DNA of 62,917 nt, the filler included, from Folioceros fuciformis (Eukaryota), in NCBI GenBank assembly GCA_049999805.1. It is 10 parts of 10 records of this genome, joined end to end, with 100 filler letters (N's around TTAATTAATTAA, not from the genome) between each part and the next. Parts side by side here need not be neighbours in the genome. Positions count along the whole stretch, not along the records: positions 20,806 to 25,510 come from JBNGIO010001674.1; 9 more parts are not named here. One strand, given 5' to 3'. A program made the translations under genes and the position numbers. Positions within the stretch are counted from its first letter, which is position 1, and every line of letters starts with the position of its first letter. Shown here piece by piece: positions 1,594 through 60,127 of this stretch. The notes beneath the pieces were generated by a model, which saw nothing but the letters and a program-made list of their open reading frames with translations, made no database searches and was not told the DNA's origin.

Positions 1594-3983
1594 TCAATAA
1601 ATTATCCACTCTGTAAAAGCAGTTGAATGATTGACCCTAGAAAGGAAAAGCTCATTGTAGCATTGATTGACATCAAGTTTAATGTCAGAATTGCTAGATT
1701 TAGGAAGTAAGGGCTGGGTTCTGTAAGGTACCACCAGGTTTTGTGTCCTCTGGGTAAGCTGCAAGCTAGGTTTTGTAATTGACTCATTTAGTTGGAGTTT
1801 CTTATAAAGAGAGTCGTCAATGTTTGTAAGAAGTAGAGGACATAATCGATCAACTTCATAGCAAACTTTGCCTTCATAAACGTCTTTCACATATTGCATT
1901 AGTAGGTTGATGAATCTCTTGTCGCCGTCACATGATGAATTAATTTTGCTAGCCAACCAATTAAATACGGATGATTTAGCTTTGATATTTTGCAAACTTG
2001 ATAGACTAAAGACTTCCTGATAGCGAAGTACTAAACAATGACCCTTGCTATTGGGGCATGCAAATAGAGGGAACCATTGACTAAGCAATGAAGAATGTTC
2101 CAATGTACTAAGTCCTCTGTACAAAGACATAATACCTGGATCTTTGAATGAGAGATGATGTATGAACTGGTCTGAAGATCCGTCCATAAATTTGAAGTCC
2201 ACTTTGTGATTTTGAAGAGTTGAAACAGTCTCATTCAAGGCACTTTTGAGAAAGAAGAAAAAACTTCCATATATATCATGCTGAGGTAGAAGAAATCGAG
2301 ACAAGTGTTCAGCAAAAACCTGCAACATATCAAGAGTATTTATGATTTTTGCAAACTTCAAGCTACAAGTATGAGGAATGTGAGGGGCAGGGTTGAAAAG
2401 GGTGTTAGAGACTATACCTCATTGATGGGCCAACCGCCAAAGCAATCAAAAGCATTTGATGGACCAATCCACCCCTTACAAGGTGAAAACAAGGTGGGAT
2501 TAGGGATAACATGGTGACTTGACAATTGGCCAAATGGTAATAGCATTCCCGTACGACGAAAATGCTTCACAACTTCAACATGCTCTTGAATGAGGTAGTC
2601 CTCTATTGCTTGGCTACTATCAAATGTAGATACAATTTGTTGTCTAGTTGATTCATACCCTGCCTCAGACCAGTTCAATAATGTCATCTCCAACAAATAC
2701 TTCCAAATTTTGGATCCTTGGGTATGAAGATGGACACAACATTGGGAGTTGTGTGCGTCATTCACAATGCAATCCGTATTTCTTTCAGGAATGTTATCTA
2801 ATTTTCTTTGTAACCCTAGCATGCTTGAAGGGGCATTCATATCCAAAACCCCAGAGTTTTTAAGGATGATTGTGATGGTCTCCATAAGCACAAGGTATTG
2901 TGGCACTGTCAAGAAAGCAGAGTACCAAATAGCTATGATAGCATCCACAACAGAATGAGGATAAACTTGATTAGCCCAAGATGCTAGTAAAGAACAGATG
3001 ATGAGATTCCTAGCAATAGCATGGTGATTTGGACAATTGATGTACAAAGTGATCTCTCCTTTGTTATGCAAATTGCCAGGGCCCTCAAACCGACAATCAC
3101 CCTTTATTTGACGGAGAGTTTGAATCACGCTACTCAAGTCGGAACAACCATCAAAAGAGAAGCGTAACGGAGTTGGGAGAATCTTGTCTGGACCCTCATA
3201 ATTTAGTAAGGCAACAACAGGAGTAGTGTCCCATTTTATTGCAGCATCATTTTGTGCATATACATACTTATTCCTTCCTGATTCCTTGTTTTCCCTTTCA
3301 GGTGGTTTCATGATGCGGTCACAGAGTGGTTGATGTCCGTCTTCCCAATGCTCTGCAAAGCACTGGGAGCTACAATAAGGACTCATATTGCAACGGCTAC
3401 ATATGTGCTGTGCAATATTTTGGCAAGGGGGTCTTCCACTATTACAATCCCAATTAGCACACATATAATACATAGGACATACACCCATGTCCATGGCGGA
3501 ACCAAGTGTTCCTCCCCTTTCTGTACTTCTTCCAAGAGGTTCCAATTCGATGGGAAATGCAAATTTGAGAATGTGTGGTGGATAGATGTAATTGTTGAGG
3601 CACAAATTTACATAGGCAAGAAGACACTTGCCAACTTCTATACTTCTTCTTTGCAGCACATATGGATTGAATAGTTCTTGCATACCTTCTTCTCTTTCAT
3701 GATGCAAGAGCCCTTGCATTTCAGCGCGAATGTTAGGATGAGTCATGAGGTTTAGTATGGCTGCTCTCTTTTGTTGTTCATACATGAAGTCCACTTCCAT
3801 GTATGACTGATCTTCTGCATTGTGCCACGTTTTCAACAAGTTCACATGACTGTAGGATAGTGCCTTTAGTTTCTCTAGAAATTCAGCTGGGAAATAGTCT
3901 CTAAGAACATGTTTCAAGTTCATGGCACCAATAATGTTGGTTTGGAAGAGATAAGCCCAAGAAACATCCTGTAAGTAATCCAT
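1594..3983 (-). CDS. MYND zinc finger + DUF4470-like domain protein (at least 763 aa; possible further 5' exons)
   Basis: Exon 3983-2418 and exon 2319-1594 join in frame through a phase-0 GT..AG intron (2417-2320). It has a MYND finger (CSRC..YCSSQC..HW..GHQPLC) and DUF4470-type motifs (DLSSVIQT, ARNLII, AIWYSAFL, FRRTGMLLPFG, PNPTLF, DIYGSFFFFL). A possible upstream in-frame exon lies near 4060-4132. Confidence 0.7.
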
Positions 3984-4999
3984 ATTATATGGCTTCCTCA
4001 GCTCAAGCTGTTAACAATTACGAGCCCAATCGAATCTATTCAACCTGATTGTCTGCTTACTTCAGTTGTCAAGATTGATAGCTCGTAGTGCAATCCAACC
4101 TCCCTCACTCTCACTCTCTTGCTCCACTCAGCTGAAGGAAATGCTGTCTAGTTCATGTAACGACGCTACGTATCGAAATCGAATTCCACTGAAAAGTCTT
4201 CATACTTCTCGACGATTGCGTTGTCGATGTGTAACACAGAGCTTTTATATTTTCCGAAGGGGACAAAGAAATGGAGCGCCAGGAGCCCTAGAAGTGGACG
4301 AGGAGAGAGCAGTTGGATCGCATCCAGTTTGAGGACTGGAAGCAGAAATCTGCGATGGAGCCAGCTCGGTGAGGGGACGCGATGGGGATCTGGCTTCCTG
4401 CAACGCCGGCGTTTTGGTTGCTTGTGTCGGTGTGATTCGGGTGGCTTTCTAGTAAGGGGGTAGTGTACTCTACAGAGTTCATTCACTCAACCAATGTTCA
4501 ATCCTGGGTATCGTGAATCAACGTGGGAAAGGGGGTGAAGGTTTCAAGCAGGAGCCATTGTGTCTCAGTGGCACCGGGTTCAACTGCAACCTGGGTATAG
4601 CACTAGGATTAGTGGTTATAGTCATGGACTGCCGTGGATTAAGGGATGGTGTAGCATCCGTTTCAGTTTGCCCACTGCTGGGCTCCAAACGTCGCTCTTC
4701 CAAGGATAGCTGCTGAGGCTGTGATCAACAACGTCTTGTCGGTATAGGTCTTCTGTCGTTTGCCTGTGCTCGAACTCGACGGATCAGAGTAAGCAATGGC
4801 ATCATGAAGCACTGTTCTCCAAGGTAGAAGTTAGCATCGATTGACATCCCACACATGATCCCAGTCACCACTGAGACTAACTAGTACTACACATCTGACG
4901 TGGAGACTAGTCATGGCCCTTGTCACGAGACCGGGCCGAGTCGACTTCTTTAGTCAAGACTGATAAAGCGAGCCTCCATGTCTTCGATTCGTCAGCTGC

Positions 5000-7169: not shown

Positions 7170-7269
7170 NNNNNNNNNNNNNNNNNNNNNNNNNNNNNNN
7201 NNNNNNNNNNNNNTTAATTAATTAANNNNNNNNNNNNNNNNNNNNNNNNNNNNNNNNNNNNNNNNNNNN
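7170..7269. other. Artificial contig-joining linker (N44-TTAATTAATTAA-N44)
   Basis: Identical 100-bp spacers with stops in all six frames also occur at 20706-20805, 25511-25610, 41826-41925, 45912-46011, 49159-49258, 52612-52711, 55864-55963 and 60028-60127. Confidence 0.98.
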
Positions 7270-9441: not shown

Positions 9442-9513
9442 AGGCCCCACCGAGATTCGAACTCGGGCTCTTGGATTCAAAGTCCAATGTCGTAACCACT
9501 AGACTATGGGGCC
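9442..9513 (-). tRNA. trnQ-UUG: tRNA-Gln (anticodon UUG)
   Basis: 72-nt cloverleaf: GGCCCCA/TGGGGCC acceptor stem, D-loop AGTGG, anticodon arm TTGGA-CTTTGAA-TCCAA, T arm CCGAG-TTCGAAT-CTCGG. No encoded CCA. Confidence 0.97.
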
Positions 9514-20633: not shown

Positions 20634-20805
20634 CTGCAGGCGCCGAGTTCAACAAAACATCACCAGTGGTTGCGCATGTATAGCACCACCTCAAAACCCT
20701 AAACCNNNNNNNNNNNNNNNNNNNNNNNNNNNNNNNNNNNNNNNNNNNNTTAATTAATTAANNNNNNNNNNNNNNNNNNNNNNNNNNNNNNNNNNNNNNN
20801 NNNNN

Positions 20806-23390
20806 TGGAGAGTCACTTATTCTCTAATTGGATAATTGACTCTAGAGCATCTTTCCATGTTACTCCGCATAGGAAGTGGTTTAGCTCTTGTGATGCTACT
20901 AGGAAAGGATGTGTTCGGCTTGGAAATAACTTCGCATGCGAGATGGCAGGCATTGGTGATGTGCAGCTGAAGTTCGACAACGGATCTTCATTCATACTAA
21001 AGGATTTTAGGCATGTTCCGAAGTTGACAAAAAGCATGATTAGCGCAGGGCAATTGGATGATGCTGGCTATCACTGTTGGTTTGGGGATCATTCTTGGAA
21101 GATCTCCAAAGATTCTCTTGTGTTAGCTCGTGGATCGAAGTGTGGCACTTTGTACTCACTTCAAGTAACCACTGTCAAGGATCATGTGATTTGTGTAACG
21201 GAACAACCAAGTGTTTCCTTGTGGCATTATCGCTTAGAACATATGTCTCAAAAAGGAATGAAGATCTTATCTCGTTTTGGTTACGTCCCTACTTTTGACT
21301 TCTCCGATTTCTTCGTGTGTGAGCACTATTTGTATGGGAAATAGATGAAGTCACCACATGGAGCAAGAGGTAAACATAGAAGTAAACCTCTTGAATAGGT
21401 TCACAGTGACGTTTGTGGACCTATGCCCACTGTATCGTTAGGTGGTGCATCCTATTTTGTCACTTTCATTGATGATTTCTCACGTAAGGTGTGGGCTTAT
21501 CCTTTGAGGAAAAAGGATGATGTTCTGACAGTGTTCCAGAAATTCGTCACCTTTGTGGAGAATCAGTCTGGCCTCCGACTAAAGTGTCTAAGAACAGACA
21601 ATGGGGGAGAGTATGTTTCGAAGGCTTTTCAGTAAGAAAAGAGAATTAACTGCTCCATATACTCCTCCCCAGAATGGTGTGGCTGAACGGATGAACAGAA
21701 TCATCCAGGAGAGGATGCGTAGTTTGTTGTCAAACTCTAGATTGCCTAACGGATTTTGGGCAGAAGCAGTGGTTACAACAATGCATCTTATTAACAGATC
21801 TCCTAATAGGGCTGTGGATGAACAGGTTCCAGAGGAGATGTGGTCTGGAAAGAAGCCGTCATACAAGCATCTACGAGTGTTTGGCTATGAGGTATACTAC
21901 CATGTTCCGAAGGAGTTTCGGGACAAGTTGGCTCCCAAGTCAAGAAAATGTATTTTTCTTAGCTATGGTGAATCTGGTGAGATGGGATACCGTCTATGGA
22001 ATCCAGAGGCCAAGAAGGTTGTACGCAGCAATGACGTGTTCTTCAATGAGACCAAGATGCACAAGAAGCCTACTCCAACTGTGGAGGTGAGATGGGTGGT
22101 CTTCCAAGAAGATGGACTTGACCGTCCTGCTCAGGTTGAATATCGTGATGTGTAGGAACAAGTTCCTCCACTTGTAGAAGAGGAGAGAGTGCAACCAGCT
22201 CTGATCGAGGCGCTAGTGCTTCGTAGGTCAGGAAGGATTTCACGTCCTCCTGACAGGTATGTTGCATCTCTTGATTATGTCATGCTGACGGATTGTGGGG
22301 AGCCCTCTTATTATCAAGAGGCCATGTAAGTGACTGACAAGGACAAGTGGGAGAAGACGATGTAGTCGCAAATGGATTCGCTCCATAAGAACCAAACGTG
22401 GGAGTTGGTTTGGTTGCCTAGGGGCAAGAAGGCGTTGCCATGCAAATGGAATGGTATTACAAGTTCCACAACGTAGCAATGAGGATCATTGCCTCTATAC
22501 AAAGCAAGCTAAGGATGAAAGCTTGCTCATTTTGGTCCTTTACGTGGATGATATGCTAATTGTTGGGACTAGCAGTGATGAGATTTCAGCATTGAAGTCA
22601 AAGTTGAATGCTCGCTTTGACATAATAGACTTGGGAGAGGCAAGTCATGTTCTTAGCATGCGTATTCGTCGAGACAGATAGAAGCATTTGCTTTACTTGT
22701 CTCAGACTGAATACATTAACAAGGTGCTTCAACATTTCAATATGGAGAAGGGAAGGTTTTGACTACTCCGTTGCCTTCATATGTGAAACTTTTGAGCAAG
22801 GATTGCCCAAGCTCTGCGGAGGACAAAGCTGAAATGGAGAAGGTTCCATACTCATGAGCTGTAGGGAGTTTGATGTATGCAATTATTACTACACGTCCTG
22901 ACATTGCCTTTGCAATGGGAGTGGTTAGCAAGTTTATGTCAAACCCTGGCAGGAAGCATTGGGAGGCAATGAAAGGAGTTATGAGGTACTTAAATGGTAT
23001 GAAAGCTTTGTGCTTATGTTTTGGTAGTGAAGATGCATATGTCGTGGGATATACGGATGTTGAATATGCAGGGTATATGGACAAAAGGAGGTCCACATCA
23101 GGTTATGTCTTCATGTGCACTAGAGGGGCAGTCTCATGGCGATCTCGTTTGCAATCTTGCATAACGCTATCTACCACAAAGGCCGAGTATGTTGCAGTGA
23201 CTGAGGCATGCAAGGAAGCCATGTGGCTTGCTCATTTAGTGGGAGATTTGGGGATCAAGGTTGAGTTGCAAGTGTTGCATTGTAATAGCCAAAGTGCTAT
23301 CCAATTGGCGAAGAATCAAGTGTTTCATGCGAAGACCAAACATGTGGAAGTGAAGTATCACTTCATTCGAGAGATGTTGGAAGACAAGAG
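20806..23390 (+). mobile_element. Degenerate Ty1/Copia internal region (protease, integrase, RT, RNase H) with stops, frameshifts and deletions
   Basis: WIIDSRASFH, LWHYRLEH, VHSDVCGP, LRTDNGGEY, PPQNGVAERMNR, LYVDDML and KTKHVEVKYHFIRE occur in Copia domain order. Confidence 0.95.
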
Positions 23391-23764
23391 AACAAGTTCT
23401 ACGCCTAACGGTCGTATTCTATGAAGCCCGTTTGGTGCACATTTGAATTTACACCATCTTAGTCACATATTCACATTTAAGCCGTTTTAAAAAAAAACAC
23501 TTGTTTTGACGTGTGGTGGACACCATCCATCTCCACAAATTTGCTTTCAGCCCACAACCAACTAGTACATAAGTTATTAAAATTATGAAAATTTCCAGAG
23601 AAAACGAATCGTACTTTGGGTGCGCTGGTCTGCTGGCGCACTCAACAATATGTTTGGGTGATAGAAAGTTGGCTATTTGCATGCCATGAAGTTAAAGGGT
23701 TTAACAGTCGAATTTAAATATACGCATAATGTACCATGGACTTCAGCTACTCTCCAAATCACCT

Positions 23765-24980
23765 CTACACCAAAACATGAACGTCTTGGTTGGCCTCAGA
23801 ATCAACAACTATATCTACATCTTTGAGGCGCTGGCGCTCTGTGTCTCCAAAGTTGTCTCCCTCCACGTCCAGGACAAAGAAATGTGGGTCGTCCACAATC
23901 TGAGGCGGAAGTGTGCCATTCTCATCCCATATCGTCAACGCGTACAGATCTTCCGTTGGTCTGTCGTTCGATTGAGAAAATATCTCTCCTTTTTTCCCCA
24001 GCAAACTGAATACCTGCATACGACGATCCACGCTACCGTCCGTGCAGACTTCTTTGGCCCAAAACTTCGTGGGCCCGTGCGAGAAGTGGCCTGTGCTGAT
24101 CTCCTCATCAGCGTCTGGCAAAGAGCCTATGCCATTCACTCTTTGCATCATATAAGTCGTGCATCATATATTAATGTCCATTGCGACAACATGCCTTCCT
24201 CTTTGAATCGCAGCCTGAAGGAATGACCCAGATCCTGCGCACGCATCCGCTAGCCAGTCTTCTTCAGCCGAAAACATATTGACCAACATACCCATTAACC
24301 CAAGGGCTTTTGATATGGCGAGATGACCATAGAATTTGCCGAGTGGAACTGACCACAGCTCCATGCCTTATAACTCTTGGCAAAAGAAATCCGTGATTCG
24401 CGAATAATCCATCTTTTGTGGTATGAGCTTCAGAGTGAACTGCACTTCCAACAATTAAATACTCCACAGTCTCAACTGCCCTTGCATTGGGAGGAATGTT
24501 GGTCTTCTCTCATACTAATGTCTGTACGGTGCCCTTCTTGCACCATGGCCGAAGTGCTTCCCTAGCCTGTGTAATGAGGTCCATGCCATGCATGAGGACC
24601 ATCCTATAAACATTACTGCTCGTGCATTCTGAAAACCCTCTGATCATGTCTTCAAGCTCTTCGCTAGTAAGCTGCCTGTCGAATTCATGGCATTGCAGTC
24701 CGCAAGGCAAATTAGCGAATAACAGAGTATAAGGTCATTTTACCAGAAATGCGTTCATCTCCAAAACGTTTCGCTGGATTACTTGATACTTAGTCTTCTA
24801 GTTGCTGCTTGGGACCCTAAACTCCGATAATCCTGCATCCATATTTGCGTCAGCGAGTTTCTGCTTTTCCTCTTCCATGCGCTTCCAGTTCTCGCTGAAT
24901 ACACATAATCTTGGAAAGGCTTCGGCAATGATTCAAGGTCATTGACGTCTGCGGGTTTCTGCCAACAAATAGTTTGGTCA
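23765..24980 (-). pseudogene. Beta-class N4-cytosine/N6-adenine DNA methyltransferase-like pseudogene with N- and C-terminal extensions
   Basis: Reconstructed order: YQVIQRNVLEM, YTLLFANLPCG (D-P/L-P-Y-like catalytic site), LV*EKTN, EYLIVG, SPYQKPLGL, FSAEEDWLADACAGSGSFLQAAIQRGRHVVAMDIN. It has four in-frame stops and about three 1-nt frameshifts. Confidence 0.78.
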
Positions 24981-25056
24981 GAAAAACCACACCACAACCC
25001 TAAATCGAGAGCTACGTTGACTCTAAACCCTAAAGAGAAAAACTCTTCTTGTGGTA

Positions 25057-25220
25057 GGAGTGCGTCGGTAGACCGGTGCACTACCCCCCAATCTACATCG
25101 TTTCGTGTGAAAGTGGCTGGAGTGCGCCGTTAGACCGGCGCACTCCAACCACTTTCACTCGAAACAATGGAAAACAAAGACCCATTCACCAGAGTGTGGC
25201 TGGGGTGCGCCGGTCTACCA
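25057..25220. repeat. Nested inverted repeats (34-bp-arm hairpin plus related palindromic motifs), likely DNA-transposon terminal region
   Basis: Arms 25096-25129 and 25136-25169 differ at 3 positions. Related GGAGTGCGYCGGTAGACCGG motifs occur at 25057-25085 and 25202-25219. Confidence 0.8.
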
Positions 25221-25743
25221 GGGTGTGAACCTCCAAAGTTTGGGGTAGTAGTTTGTTTTGGTTGAAAAAGGGTTAATAGTGGTATGGTTTGGTTTTCTTT
25301 TTCAACTTATTTTCCCTAATTTTCCTTGATTTTCTGATCATTTTTCCTATTTTTCTTTGTGTTAATTAGGTTAATTGACCAGGAAATAGTTGGTTTGGTT
25401 ATAGGAGTGGGTATAGGTTTGGTCCCAGACCTGGGAAGGTTTAGGTTCGGTACCAGGCCATAGGGTTGGGTGATTAGTTTAATATTAATTAAAGGTATAT
25501 AATATTAAATNNNNNNNNNNNNNNNNNNNNNNNNNNNNNNNNNNNNNNNNNNNNTTAATTAATTAANNNNNNNNNNNNNNNNNNNNNNNNNNNNNNNNNN
25601 NNNNNNNNNNGCTCTCTAGGTCTGCTGAGAGGGCGTTGTCTGTGCTCGTGTACGCACATTTGGTGGGTTGGGTATGAGTGCGAGTGGATGGCTGGTGGCC
25701 GAGTTTGTCTAGGGCTGGTTGCTGATTGGTTTTGTGTCAGCAG

Positions 25744-41825: not shown

Positions 41826-41925
41826 NNNNNNNNNNNNNNNNNNNNNNNNNNNNNNNNNNNNNNNNNNNNTTAATTAATTAANNNNNNNNNNNNNNNNNNN
41901 NNNNNNNNNNNNNNNNNNNNNNNNN

Positions 41926-45911: not shown

Positions 45912-46011
45912 NNNNNNNNNNNNNNNNNNNNNNNNNNNNNNNNNNNNNNNNNNNNTTAATTAATTAANNNNNNNNNNNNNNNNNNNNNNNNNNNNNNNNN
46001 NNNNNNNNNNN

Positions 46012-49158: not shown

Positions 49159-49656
49159 NNNNNNNNNNNNNNNNNNNNNNNNNNNNNNNNNNNNNNNNNN
49201 NNTTAATTAATTAANNNNNNNNNNNNNNNNNNNNNNNNNNNNNNNNNNNNNNNNNNNNGTGTCGTGAATAGAGATATCCAAAAAATCCAGAATAGAAAAT
49301 TTTGGGTTTTTTTTTAATTTATTTTTTAGTGGACTATGGAACATGCCACTCATGCATGAGTGCCTTAAGAGATGTGTTACCATCAGTCTATACGTTTATC
49401 ATGAAGTCGAGCTCCTAAGACCTCTAGCAGCTATATACTCGTGTGCTTTTGTATGAGCTCCTTTCATTACAACATTTAGCAGTAAGTTTGGTAACAAGCT
49501 TGGCTGCAAGAAATAGAACCAAGTTTAAATCATTATATCATATAATTATATAAATCAAGATAACATATTACATTTGGACTTGAGAAAAACAAGATGGAAA
49601 CCCATCTAGTTCAAAACGACTAAGACAAACCACCATACAAACCTTCAAACACATTA

Positions 49657-52133: not shown

Positions 52134-53729
52134 TTCTGCCCGCTCGTTCCACTCCTACCCAACACTAAATCCTTCAGCCCCACAATCCTCCTCGCTCCGC
52201 AACGTGATCTCACATCCCAGGCCGCACCCAGGGCCCGAAATCCCAGCAGCGCAACAACGCCGCCGGATCCACACGGAACGGCAACACAACATCCATGCAC
52301 ACTGCCCGAGGCCCAAGAAGGTCGGCCAGCACAACAGGCACAGATCTGGGGATTGCGGCAGGTGGGTCAGGCCAACTGCGTGAGCCCCGCAGGAAAGCGA
52401 TGGGAATGATGGGCACAGTAAGCAGTCGAGCGTGGTGATGGCGAGGCGCTGAGATTAAGTCGGCAATGGCCTGTCCTTCCCAGATTCAGGAAACACAGCA
52501 TGTGAGGCGAACATGGAGACCATTTGTACTTTTTCACCTCCCTGCCTGTAATTCGCGGCCTGATGAGGGCGGGGCGGTCCCACCACGACCTTCACGACCT
52601 ACACCAAATCCNNNNNNNNNNNNNNNNNNNNNNNNNNNNNNNNNNNNNNNNNNNNTTAATTAATTAANNNNNNNNNNNNNNNNNNNNNNNNNNNNNNNNN
52701 NNNNNNNNNNNCCTCACAAGAGGAGATATCTAAGTCAATTCATGTGAAGTAGCTACTCATCTTAGTTGCTAGCATTCCTCAGCCTCTTATTTATGACCAA
52801 GTTGTGAGCTACTATTGATTATGTCAAGGTCAGCATTGAAGTAGAGGAGTCTTGGTCTCCAACCTTTAGGAGGGAAAAAGCGATCCATGCTTTTGACAAA
52901 TGGTGAATTTGCATATTTTGATAAATTAGTAAGGAAAATGAAACATGCAAATGTAATCACTAAAATGAAAAACATGGAAGACATGGTTCAGGAACATGAA
53001 TTTGTGGTCACACAACAAAGAAAAATAGAATATTTAGCTTAATGCTAAGAAATGAGTGTTAATCTTTGGCAATCTGTTGTTGTCAACAAGTGTGATGGTT
53101 CTATGTATATACCCCGTTCGGAGCTCCGTAGTTAAGTGCCCTTGGGACATGCCCTTAGGATGGATCAATATTGGAATGGGAAACATGTTAAGCTAACGTT
53201 TTGTGCCCAAGTCAAAAAAAAAAATCAGACACATGGGGGTTTCTATCATAAGATGCCTCAAACGTATAGGGCGCCACATCCAAAACCCTGAATGTCCAAG
53301 GCCTTAGGCACAAAAAATACCCTAGATGTCTGAGTTTTTTTCTCCCTTGTCATTAAAAATCAAGACATCCAGGCTAAAGGGCACTAAATCCCTAATCCTC
53401 ATGACTCTAAAGGTGCAAAAAGACTTGTAAGTCTATAATGTCTATAATGTAACCATCTACTAGGTTTTAATACTTGCTTGTTGGATTTAAGAGAACTCTT
53501 AATCACTAGCAAAGTTGGAGGTGTATTGAATGTTTGGGCACGTACACTATTGTTAAAGGTTTTCAATGAGAAGGTTCTGGTTGTCCAATGAATGCCACCT
53601 TTCGCTAACATTTAGATCCATGCTCTTAGGAATGGTGACGATAATGATTGTGGTTGTGGGTTTGCGACATTGACAATAGTCTGTATAGTTATTTGTGAAT
53701 TTTTACATTCAAAACAACATCTTGTTAAG

Positions 53730-55863: not shown

Positions 55864-58800
55864 NNNNNNNNNNNNNNNNNNNNNNNNNNNNNNNNNNNNN
55901 NNNNNNNTTAATTAATTAANNNNNNNNNNNNNNNNNNNNNNNNNNNNNNNNNNNNNNNNNNNNGCTCCTGATTTTTGCATACACTCCGAAAAGGCTGCCA
56001 AAATCATCCATCCACGGACCATACAGGAGTTAGTATACAGCATACAGCTGGTATCTAATGATGACCACGGAACAACCTGCTTTTCAAGACTTCAAAACTT
56101 CAAGGACAAACTTGAAGGGGGTGGGGTGTGTTGGTACCAGAAAACATATCCTCAAGTCGTGCTGTGTACTCGGCCGGTAGCATCATCTGTTGCTCTGTTG
56201 TATGTACAGCCTCGGTCTCGGAATCGATCGCCATGGTTTTGGAGGATGGGAACGCCATGCGCGCCTCACGCTGACCTTTGTACGCTGCTCCTTGGGGTAG
56301 GCTGATTTTTGTAAGGCACTTCCTAGTCCTCCACAAGACCTTTCGCGTGATTGTAATCTCTGGAGCTATCAAAGTATTGAATCTAGATAAATGCTTTATG
56401 TTAGAAAGGGCCGTGGCAACCACATATATAGCCTTCGCCGACACATGATAAGAGCCATTGATCCTCGGAAATCATCTCTGCAGTCTCGATGTTTCTATCC
56501 TTGCAGCTCGAGCACCTCGTCTCCAAGACGCATACGCGTAGTGACCCAGAGGTTTTAGTCAGCTCATAGCCTCCATCCCCATACCATAAAGCTTGTTTTG
56601 CGCCTCAATGATGCTCATAAGGCCTTTCCCGATGCCATCTTCGTCTATCAAGCTCTTCGAAATCCATTTCAGTCCACTAGCTTAGGGTGCTCAAACGAGC
56701 CCATGGTGAAGGATCGCAGCGTAGCGCTTTTTCCATGCCTCCAAGAGGAACATACCATTTATTTGAAGTATAAAACAATAGAGATCATAGCGCTGTGCCC
56801 TGACATTCCCTTCTTTTCTTCAAGCTTACGGATTGACACCTACTTGGGAGGGACAACATGAGGCTGTGCGCGAAGAAGCGAATCACATCACTCCCTCTCT
56901 TCAAGGATCGAAGGATATCCACCTGGGAGATCATTGGGACTGCACCTTCAAACGTCCTTGGGTGGGTGCTTTACTCCAAGCTTGATTATTGGAGTAAGCA
57001 CTCAAAATGCCAATCTTCACTGGAGTTGGAGTAGGGCCCAGCCGACTAATCACCGGCCCCAGAATTCATGCCTATGCCATGTTCGAGTTGTCAGCGCAGG
57101 AGGCGTGTAGAACGACGTTGTGGGGTCACGCGATTTCCTTGCGAAAACGCTGATAGAGTGCGACGTGAATCTACGGAATCTTTCCAAGTATCTTCTTCAC
57201 TGTCGAAAGGGCACATTTTACACAAGCTTATCACTGGCCATTTCACGACACGGGTAGCTAACCAAGTGTGCTGTGCTCAGCTGCAGCTTATCGAAAAGGT
57301 GTCAGCCGTAGTAAAGGGCCAAGAAGGTTGCAGCGCATCTCTACTACAGATTGAAGCTCGGGGGCTGAGGCCGACGGATCACGTCATTATCTTGGATCTT
57401 ATGGTGAGGGTGAGAGGGACCATTCTTGGCAACGGCGCGGGTATTCTTAATATGGACTCCTTCCTACGCTACAATCGTCGCTGCCCTACTCCCACTGATG
57501 CCGATGACCATCTCGATACGGAGAATTACGCTGCCTGCGCAGCAGAAATTGAAGAGGGACTGCGGATGCTGAAGGCGAGAGAGTACGATAACCTCCCAGA
57601 TGACGGCATTTTCGATGTGCACCGAGATCAGGGCTTCCACCAGGAACGCATCTCCACCGGGGCCAGGCTCTCCGTTAATTTTGTAGTTCGTCATTGTTGG
57701 GTGCAACAATAGTGCTGATATGCTTTGCACCATCAGCAACTGTCCTTCCATGCAGTAATCGACTCGGCCATGAGCGACCTGTCTGTTGGCGACGAGCCTA
57801 CGGGTCCTGAAGCCGCACTACTTTTGTGAGAACCGGATGCGCGGAAGATTTCGCGCGCCAGCGAGTCTGCAACAGAGCTTGACAAATGCAGCAGTGACGG
57901 TGGACGGAGTAACGAAAGGTGTGGAAACACAGGCTAATCGACGGGCCGCCGTCAATCGGCAAGTCTTCGGTGTCCATGAGCTACGGTTCAAGGCCGATTG
58001 TTCTATGATGAGGATTGCGCTTTGCTGAGATGGCATCCTGACATGGGAGATTGTGAACCAGGCCTGCGCAACCCTCCTGCTCTTTGTCCTAGTGCAAAGT
58101 CGAGCTGGCGACCCAACGCGGGAGTCGTGCTGTCGATCTACGCGTCTCCCTGGTACCTTTCTTCATAAAGTCAGGGTCGGTGGCTACGCTGGATCAAGAG
58201 GACACGAGAAGCGGTGAAAATAGATGCCTGAAATCCTAACTTCGGCCCTGGCTAGGTTGAATTCCTCAAGAATGAATGGCTGCTTCACTTAATATGGAGG
58301 AAACGGGGTGGGGCCATGGCAAATGGATCTCACCTTCTTGCAGCCATCATCCCACTACTGGTTGGGATTCGATAGCCCACAGTCACTAACACGGGTGCTG
58401 GCACCACAACCCAGCGAAGACAAGACAAAATACATGTTGCATATTGTGTAGGGTAAGGTTGCATATTTCCGTACCCACATACATATGCCCTAGTCAATAT
58501 CTCAAGCCCTTGGAAAAATGACCCATGGGCCGCCCGGGCCCTAACCCTACTGTGGAGTGAAATGTTGTGTTTGGGGACCCCTCGAGGTCCACACTTATAC
58601 TCTATGTCGTTGTAGTCATGGGATTCACTCCTAAGAGAATGAGTCCACGCTTATCCTCTATGTTGTTGTAGCCATGGGATTCGTTCCCAAGGGAATAATT
58701 TGTGCCAAATAACGTAGACTCCTTCTATTTCTGGCTCTTGCCTAGGTCAGGGTTCACCCACTACTGTTCTCACTTCTTAATAGCTCAACTACCCCTACCC

Positions 58801-60127
58801 TCAGGTAACCCAGCGACTGCAATTCCTATTCCATGACCCCGATTTCTACTCCACGACCACAGTCATTAGCTCTGCGACCGGTAATGACCCCCACTACCAT
58901 GGTGGGTCCCACCATGAACCCTAACTAGTGTCCCGGCGCATGCACGCCCACAGTTTCCACCCCGGGTTCTTGCCCCGAGCTCCTTGACTGGTCTTATGGA
59001 GTGCTAACCACACATGCATAGGCCAACCCTTGGAAGGAAAAAAAACCCACTGGTTAGCCACACTCCCTCACACCACGAGCATTACTCACACGCACACACA
59101 TCGGAACTCTGATGCACAATCGTTCCCTCAGGTTGAGCTCCAAATGCTTCCAGCAGCCACAAATCCCTAGCAGTCTCCCAGCTACTTCCCACAATCTTCC
59201 TCAAAAATCTTCCACAAATCACACCCCAGTTCAACAGTCTTTCACAACCATCCAGCAAATTCTCAACAGTTTCCTTTAGTTCTCCAGCAGTCACTTAGTG
59301 AGCTCTTTTATGTTAGTCGCAGTTAGTTCTTCTCCTCTTCTCTCACACACTCTCTTCAACACCTCGTCTACACTCTCTTCAACACCAGATTCGAAACGCA
59401 GCCAATAGCTCAGGGAATAAGGGAAGGAGAAGCTCCCCTTTCACACCGTGCAACTGGCGGATTCGTCCCCCTCCTTCAACTGCGGACCACAGTCGGCCGT
59501 TTAAGGGATAAGGGAATGAGCAGTTCTTCTTCCACTCAGTGCGGTGGGCTGATTCATCCCCTTCACCACCGCTGCGGAACACAACTAGCGATTCAGGGAA
59601 TAAGGGAAGGTGACCTTCCACTCAATAGGGAATTTGCTGATTTGTTCCCCTCATGACCAGCTACGGAGCAAAGGCTCTCGACCACCCCTAGGAGCGTCGC
59701 GCACACACTACCCACCCAGACACCTCCAATCCAGCCATGGTCAGCGCAGGGATCTCAACCGGGAGTTGTCTCTAACATTCGCTGATTATCGAGACCCAAT
59801 AGGCTCTTTGTACAACGCGTCCAGGGCGAAGTCGCAGCCGCTATTAAGTCTAGTCTAAGCAGTCAAGTGCTCTTAATTCCGAGCGGCGTTAGGTCCAAGA
59901 AAACATCTTCACCGGATCTTAACTAAATACTATTTTAAGATGCAATAAATTTTGGCCTATCTTATCACCGCGCTTGCCTCCTATCTAGCCTTTGTGTTCT
60001 CCTTCCCCGGCCGCCAAATCCTCGGGCNNNNNNNNNNNNNNNNNNNNNNNNNNNNNNNNNNNNNNNNNNNNTTAATTAATTAANNNNNNNNNNNNNNNNN
60101 NNNNNNNNNNNNNNNNNNNNNNNNNNN

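Follow-up and report, generated by a model that had tools for sequence, protein, structure and literature searches.

Eukaryotic uses of prokaryote-type DNA amino-methyltransferases are few, and each has shifted ideas on N4-methylcytosine (4mC) and N6-methyladenine (6mA) in eukaryotes. In Marchantia, MpDN4MT1a and MpDN4MT1b are reported to be 4mC enzymes of the beta class; they have a TSPPY motif, are encoded by tandem, expressed host genes and are needed for 4mC in sperm (10.1101/2021.02.12.428880). The bdelloid N4CMT is reported as a bacterial gene of the Pfam family PF01555 fused to a chromodomain (PMC8885841). In red algae, PAG2, a gene in which PF01555 is joined to SET, is reported on DNA transposons, giant Plavaka among them (10.1101/2025.02.11.637652), and Asparagopsis has 66 genes with a PF01555 domain (PMC12115072). 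Polinton-like viruses are reported to have N6_N4_Mtase as one of their ten most abundant domains (10.64898/2026.05.28.728513), and the chloroviruses are described as methyltransferase-rich (PMC7248222). Given the PAG2, Asparagopsis and Polinton-like virus reports, element-borne PF01555 genes in eukaryotes are thus already known. Here we analyse a methylase-like relic located on the minus strand, from 24967 to 23765, of a 62,917-base stretch of DNA from Folioceros fuciformis (GCA_049999805.1), called the window below. The relic is probably one degraded member of a divergent, beta-class methyltransferase-like family of the source eukaryote that is intronless, multicopy and presumably dispersed. 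Diverged copies are found on many contigs.

Relatives of the relic were searched with phmmer, using its N-terminal read-through translation against 1.84 billion protein representatives at E≤1e-3. Seven of the 10 matches are true relatives, with E values from 2.1e-11 to 7.5e-4; the other three (P0003, P0009 and P0011) are repetitive, low-complexity proteins and were dropped. A profile search added an eighth relative, P0015, and its remaining matches were all classical PF01555 enzymes with E near 5e-5, one of them coming from NCBI and not a family member. Word-indexed protein searches with two read-through pieces, restricted to near lengths, gave no match. Full-length relatives encoded by a single open reading frame are P0006 (288 aa), P0005 (323 aa) and P0008 (446 aa), and members are only 35-55% identical to each other. 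In P0013/P0014, which come from one organism, the family protein has 200 additional residues at its N-terminus, and on a second contig this extension is split off from the methylase half; it matched no Pfam or PHROG family, and nothing in the window by tblastn. The SET domain (PF00856) was absent from the 10 proteins hit by phmmer and from P0013-P0015. A protein atlas search with P0008 returned only phage PF01555 clusters, and a scan with a 4-row family alignment only classical enzymes, from 2 metagenome and 3 IMG/VR loci, the latter being 35% identical over ~70 C-terminal residues.

Compared with this family, the minus strand from 24967 to 23765 yields a single colinear protein, which four in-frame stops and three 1-nt frameshifts interrupt. 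Its features, with scores from a family hidden Markov model (HMM), are listed below in the direction of reading.

24890 to 24967, minus strand: N-terminal segment of the relic, peptide ..DLESLPKPFQDYVYSAR (family HMM 3.7 bits)
24886 to 24892, minus strand: third frameshift, a 1-nt loss in the window copy, placed by the frame change between HMM segments
24420 to 24887, minus strand: catalytic half of the relic (family HMM 92.7 bits; tblastn with P0004, E 8e-17)
24798 to 24800, minus strand: in-frame TAG, in a variable, gapped alignment column where the ancestral codon is not readable
24776 to 24756, minus strand: QRNVLEM, a GD.LE-like motif with D>N, from codon reading
24735 to 24737, minus strand: in-frame TGA, where relatives have R (5/7) or K (2/7)
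24713 to 24702, minus strand: NLPC loop, DLPR in the family, from codon reading
24515 to 24498, minus strand: V-stop-EKTN, VW.KTN in the family, from codon reading; VEYLIVG is also in the catalytic half
24510 to 24512, minus strand: in-frame TGA replacing the W of VW.K.N, W in every relative covering the position
24301 to 24348, minus strand: short middle-frame segment with SPYQKP (24321-24304), a HPTQKP-type motif (HMM 5.0 bits)
24030 to 24310, minus strand: half with the S-adenosylmethionine (SAM)-binding motif (family HMM 63.9-64.9 bits)
24166 to 24164, minus strand: in-frame TGA, at a P/R/K position in relatives
23765 to 24029, minus strand: acidic, poorly conserved C-terminal tail, open until the TAG at 23767-23765

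Family members used as tblastn queries matched a single locus, in frames -3 (24896-24420), -2 (24348-24301) and -1 (24310-24050), and the family HMM scored 92.7, 5.0 and 63.9 bits on the same three frames, in colinear order. A single frame starting at 24932 passes through TAG 24800, TGA 24737 and TGA 24512. Two 1-nt frameshifts then flank the SPYQKP segment, which is matched in frame -2 by P0005, P0008 and P0015. In the SAM-binding half, motif I (D-A-C-A-G-S-G-S, 24247-24224) is followed by VVAMDIN, the TGA at 24166-24164 and a conserved LP.(D/E).EEI stretch, and homology to the family HMM continues for ~45 residues beyond this TGA. The read-through tail has 132 residues, with 25 D+E against 11 K+R; P0008 and P0015 likewise end in acidic low-complexity tails. 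The third frameshift lies upstream. The N-terminal segment is in a frame different from that of the core, and its HMM match (E 0.0036 with three sequences), which is colinear, is weak when taken alone; a BLASTP of P0010 against this upstream frame gave no alignment. A weak HMM segment in another frame nevertheless points to a 1-nt frameshift near 24888, and an extra T is present behind 24888 in seven contigs of the sequencing run X1, which stem from other copies, and in six and two contigs of the runs X2 and X3, respectively.

The first-pass annotation had stitched minus-strand pieces into one broken protein, and the peptides it quoted and its four stop positions were all found again. Both frameshifts it claimed were confirmed, but its count was one short. 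It had also read all stops as single transitions from TGG or CGA codons: this holds for three of them, which fall at W or R/K/P positions of the relatives and are each one transition away from TGG or CGA; the TAG at 24800 falls in the gapped column. Further residue changes of the G>A or C>T type were noted in the relic, namely D>N at three sites, R>C at one, V>M and V>I, the last two from our own reading of the relic codons against the family alignment. Decay driven by methylation was also proposed: the observed/expected CpG ratio of the relic is 0.78, compared to 0.50-0.76 on the other contigs, and because it is not below them such a process is not specifically supported. The window copy makes no protein and is a pseudogene: its catalytic loop has D>N and R>C changes, in addition to the four stops and three frameshifts of the whole frame.

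Class membership was examined at the level of profiles, structures and phage sequences. The motif-I piece of the window scored 23.0 bits against PF01555 (E 8.5e-5), below the gathering cut-off of 26.7 bits, and aligned to positions 165-213 of the 221 in the profile, at its correct end; as the window copy is split over four reading-frame segments, any single-frame PF01555 score is lowered. The N-terminal read-through matched no Pfam family. The PF01555 check suggested by the earlier annotation therefore fails for the window copy itself but succeeds for all four relatives that contain the C-terminal half, P0005 (50.1 bits), P0006 (47.3), P0008 (30.0) and P0015 (39.7). Alignment of the family profile with three classical PF01555 proteins by hhalign gave a probability of 98.6% and an E value of 1.2e-15 over 226 columns, pairing GD..M with GDCLE, DLPRGL with DPPYFL, VW.KTN with ITWVKPN, TNVF with SVW, YQKP with HPTQKP, and CSGSG with FLGSGTT. 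The permuted motif order is present, with the catalytic loop N-terminal and the SAM-binding motif I C-terminal. This motif reads D.C(S/A)GSG then AVD(V/I)DP in the family, DACAGSGS and AMDIN in the window.

In a profile search of the PDB, all 11 matches at E≤0.0013 were beta-class DNA N6A/N4C methyltransferases, including M.RsrI (the best, 1.4e-7), TTHA0409, M1.HpyAVI/DpnA, CcrM, M.BceJIV, MboIIA and the rotifer N4CMT, over alignments confined to the C-terminal ~85 profile positions; the window piece alone gave only a chance-level PDB match. The Foldseek matches listed at E≤2e-3 for a low-confidence AlphaFold model of P0006 were likewise all beta-class DNA methyltransferases. P0006 also matched 390 phage records by tblastn, 46 of them over at least 80% of the protein, and the leading NCBIfam models were adenine-specific ones, far below their cut-offs. 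The PF01555 passes, together with the hhalign, PDB, Foldseek and phage matches, indicate the layout, and suggest the fold, of a beta-class amino-methyltransferase. Judged from these comparisons, the family is homologous to the beta-class (circularly permuted, PF01555) DNA amino-methyltransferases, and divergent. The first reading of the locus as a decayed, intronless relic of a homologue of this class is borne out, relatives, PDB profile and Foldseek matches being in agreement.

The catalytic loop is where the family departs from its class. The catalytic tetrapeptide of the class is (D/N/S)PP(Y/F/W), and its aromatic residue stacks on the target base. The family reads DLPRG in 5/7 of the clusters covering the loop, the two most distant clusters having DIPFG and YIPYG, and the window reads NLPC. 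The window codons AAT (24713) and TGC (24704) are each one transition away from an Asp and an Arg codon, respectively, and since the family has DLPR the window copy decayed from DLPR, by D>N plus R>C, and not from DLPY, one of the two options raised by the first-pass annotation. Neither NLPC nor the mostly DLPR state of the family fits the tetrapeptide, which makes activity on DNA uncertain. That an Arg is kept at the aromatic position among members 35-55% identical points to selection; the Arg would then be a selected change, by which activity may have been modified and not simply abolished. Of the phage and metagenome enzymes, those closest to the family (Pseudomonas phage HU1, Ralstonia phage RS-CA1, and two metagenome loci, L001/L002) read DLPYG, and DN(C/T)MGSGTT at motif I, with the same unusual Cys/Thr before GSG as in the family. 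Both traits fit a descent of the family from DLPYG-type enzymes. In an 11-row tree the family is monophyletic (100/99), on a long branch, with an unresolved sister group.

The runs covered were X1-X3, which are one sample and may be the source of the assembly itself, and X4, another sample of the same organism. Word depth in X1 was summed over contigs, which is not a copy number, and single contigs have a depth of ~10; the sums along the contig of the relic were:

20806 to 23474, Ty1/Copia part, plus the bases just after the pol stop: 1e4-4e4
23475 to 25201, region containing the relic: 140-600
25202 to 25510, end of the contig: 1.3e5-1.6e5

At position 24253, 23 different X1 contigs were recovered, every one differing from the window, and the listed contig pieces over the relic are 8-12% divergent from it. 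Taken with the summed depth compared to that of single contigs, this indicates tens of diverged copies. The family is thus multicopy in its source organism, as first suggested. The many diverged copies agree with the further suggestion that it is borne by a transposon, but no transposase, terminal inverted repeat (TIR) pair or target-site duplication was found around the relic on its 4.7-kb contig.

On its contig, the relic has the following surroundings.

20806 to 23424, plus strand: Ty1/Copia pol fragment (Pfam Pol_BBD, gag_pre-integrs, SH3_retrovirus), its start cut by the contig start
23618 to 23643, no strand: palindromic GC-rich motif downstream of the relic, from 15-mer matches
25058 to 25217, no strand: palindromic motif cluster upstream of the relic, including 25058-25083, 25196-25217 and a hairpin at 25096-25169 with 34-nt arms
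25224 to 25510, no strand: terminal part of a hyper-abundant repeat (summed word depth 1.3e5-1.6e5 in X1), with a sharp boundary at 25224

The 3′ end of the relic lies 340 bp beyond the pol stop, on the strand opposite to pol, and no recognisable 3′ long terminal repeat (LTR) follows the pol fragment on this contig. The abutting arrangement described at first is supported. The high repeat depth of the Copia region ends inside the bin starting at 23475. After the pol stop at 23424, a run of ten A is found at 23485-23497; the Copia copy may be truncated or processed. Before 25224, 24 X1 contigs carry unrelated sequence. In X4, which may be an RNA run, a 2,053-nt contig ends in the hyper-abundant repeat of 25224-25510. 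The GC-rich palindromic motif is present on both flanks of the relic: six of the seven window matches to the palindromic 15-mer (≤3 mismatches) fall within 23618-25217, for an average of 0.87 in shuffles. Between the hairpin arms, other genomic copies hold 20-39 nt of varied sequence, as in a small foldback element. Isolated AACCCTAAA units, which we take to be the plant-type telomere repeat motif, were seen at 24986-25035, near the relic, and at 20685-20703, at a contig end.

The window is not one piece of chromosome. It consists of ten contigs joined by nine identical artificial spacers, each made of 44 N, TTAATTAATTAA and 44 N, at the following positions:

7170-7269, 20706-20805, 25511-25610, 41826-41925, 45912-46011, 49159-49258, 52612-52711, 55864-55963 and 60028-60127

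Only the 4,705-base contig at 20806-25510 is physically linked to the relic. Plant-like genes are found on other contigs (a germin-type cupin, a DUF4470 + zf-MYND protein, an Fe-S assembly protein, a histone deacetylase and a GEX2-like Ig domain); standing behind artificial spacers, they give no linkage information for the relic. The zf-MYND + DUF4470 frame is open for 532 codons (2412-4010, minus strand), which is long for a single exon. A tRNA gene lies at 9442-9513, minus strand, also on another contig (Rfam 69.2 bits), and the Rfam scan of the window gave nothing besides it.

How the copies arose was weighed against several other origins. Since enzymes of this class occur mainly in prokaryotes, and the window piece taken by itself stays below the Pfam cut-off, a bacterial or phage contaminant might be invoked, or a resemblance due to chance. 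We find this hardly credible: the relic is broken by stops and frameshifts, sits on the same contig as a Copia family highly repeated in the same runs and has many diverged copies, while its nearest relatives form a separate family rather than bacterial enzymes, with E down to 2e-11 among 1.84 billion proteins. As far as present data go, the breakage, the Copia linkage, the copies and the E values refute it. An antisense cargo of a Copia subfamily, placed between pol and the 3′ LTR, would account for the location of the relic 340 bp past the pol stop on the opposite strand, and the very abundant repeat starting at 25224 could then be the LTR. The depth profile makes such an arrangement very unlikely: depth is 1e4-4e4 over pol but 140-600 over the relic, which leaves no more than a few percent of the related Copia copies that could carry the methylase; neither a polypurine tract nor an LTR was identified on the contig, and pol is followed by the A-run at 23485-23497.

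Polinton-like viruses, virophages and relatives of giant viruses often carry PF01555 methylases, and the copies might be remains of such integrated eukaryotic DNA viruses instead of transposon cargo. An intronless gene with phage-like relatives agrees with this origin, as do the top-ten rank of N6_N4_Mtase among Polinton-like virus domains (10.64898/2026.05.28.728513) and the methyltransferase richness reported for chloroviruses (PMC7248222). Nevertheless, the IMG/VR scan yielded just the three classical loci mentioned above (35% identity over ~70 C-terminal residues), the 4.7-kb contig holds no further viral gene and the repeated unit is short, ~1.7 kb, so that we regard a viral origin as unlikely. 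That the relic is a pseudogene from a normal gene family of the host, grown by segmental or tandem duplication without any mobile element, is a little less plausible again, and improbable. It would explain why neither a transposase nor terminal repeats turned up next to the relic, and one diverged contig does span the junction between Copia end and spacer sequence (23431-23561), which fits joint copying of blocks; it is at odds with the tens of copies, 8-12% diverged, with the lack of any relative named in annotated sources, and with the location of the relic between other repeats.

A number of observations weigh against the reading we prefer, that of a decayed copy of a dispersed multicopy methyltransferase-like family. 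The sequence was found in runs of one organism only, and X4 had nothing on the relic between 23475 and 25201. The eight relatives were all found in assemblies of runs or metagenomes (Logan, ENA), without a name in annotation. The AlphaFold model of P0006 is poor (predicted local distance difference test score 55.5, predicted template modelling score 0.57) and the Foldseek template modelling scores are low, 0.32-0.53. The 11-row tree does not group the family with the DLPYG enzymes. To these are added points already met: the Pfam score of the window copy below the cut-off, the departure from the class tetrapeptide, the missing transposase, TIR pair and target-site duplication, and the caution that summed depth is not a copy number.

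Intact relatives elsewhere are proteins of 288-446 aa with the full enzyme layout, in order, an N-terminal GD..M, DLPRG where the class has DPPY, VW.KTN, TNVF, SPYQKP, D.C(S/A)GSG, NV.AVDVDP and an acidic tail. If the locus is such a decayed family copy, intact members would use motif I and the acidic VDVD strand to bind SAM, and may dock on DNA in the manner of the phage enzymes related to them. In the most likely working model, the base-methylating step itself is altered or lost in them. The family would derive from phage or bacterial DLPYG-type enzymes. It would multiply by being carried, as is probable, on a mobile element, or else as a small ~1.7-kb repeat unit (23475-25201).

A more ambitious proposal is that the DLPRG proteins are a working, mobile-element-borne family, spread through plant or algal genomes, whose members either write 6mA/4mC on DNA using a base pocket built around Arg or are repurposed SAM-binding derivatives; repeat masking would keep such proteins out of gene sets, and their spread would therefore have gone unnoticed. 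We consider this doubtful. Were it true, phage-type amino-methyltransferases would have entered eukaryotes independently once more, after the bdelloid N4CMT, the DN4MT1 of Marchantia and the PAG2 of red algae. Intact members, if active, would be candidates on which element-borne DNA marking could be tested; if inactive, they would offer a parallel to METTL14, which has lost catalysis. The window copy itself is a fossil, and its value is that of a pointer to the family.

Among known systems, the phage and bacterial DLPYG enzymes (the annotated methylases of phages HU1 and RS-CA1) have the whole motif order in common with the family. Like it, they have Leu second in the loop (DLP.G), and Cys/Thr before GSG followed by RN.I..(E/D).D; the ten phage matches listed for P0006 are 24-27% identical over 81-84% of the protein. 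They differ in having Tyr in place of Arg, and neither an N-terminal extension nor an acidic tail. The solved beta-class enzymes M.RsrI, CcrM, M1.HpyAVI and MboIIA, which act on N6-adenine, and M.PvuII and the rotifer N4CMT, on N4-cytosine, have DPPY or SPPY where the family has DLPRG. This group supplies the best Foldseek matches. In the PDB profile search, apart from M.RsrI, at 1.4e-7, they were matched at 1.6e-6 to 1.3e-3, and M.PvuII at 0.64; a specificity for 6mA or 4mC cannot be read from the PDB, Foldseek or NCBIfam scores.

In eukaryotes, no DLPR-type PF01555 family without SET turned up in the literature, where the motif itself was not searched for. MpDN4MT1a/b are, like the window family, plant-lineage genes of the prokaryotic beta-class amino-methyltransferase type; they are reported as an expressed tandem pair with TSPPY, whereas the window family is multicopy with DLPRG, and its window copy is decayed. 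The (T)SPPY motif of the MpDN4MT1 and rotifer N4CMT kind is replaced in the family by DLPRG. PAG2 shares with the family a PF01555 domain present in many copies in eukaryotes, and is itself located on mobile elements; it is reported to have a SET fusion with PAG1, PAG3 and a DDE transposase beside it, whereas no SET was found in the family proteins scanned. What sets the window family apart is the conserved Arg at the aromatic position of the class, together with tens of copies in one genome.

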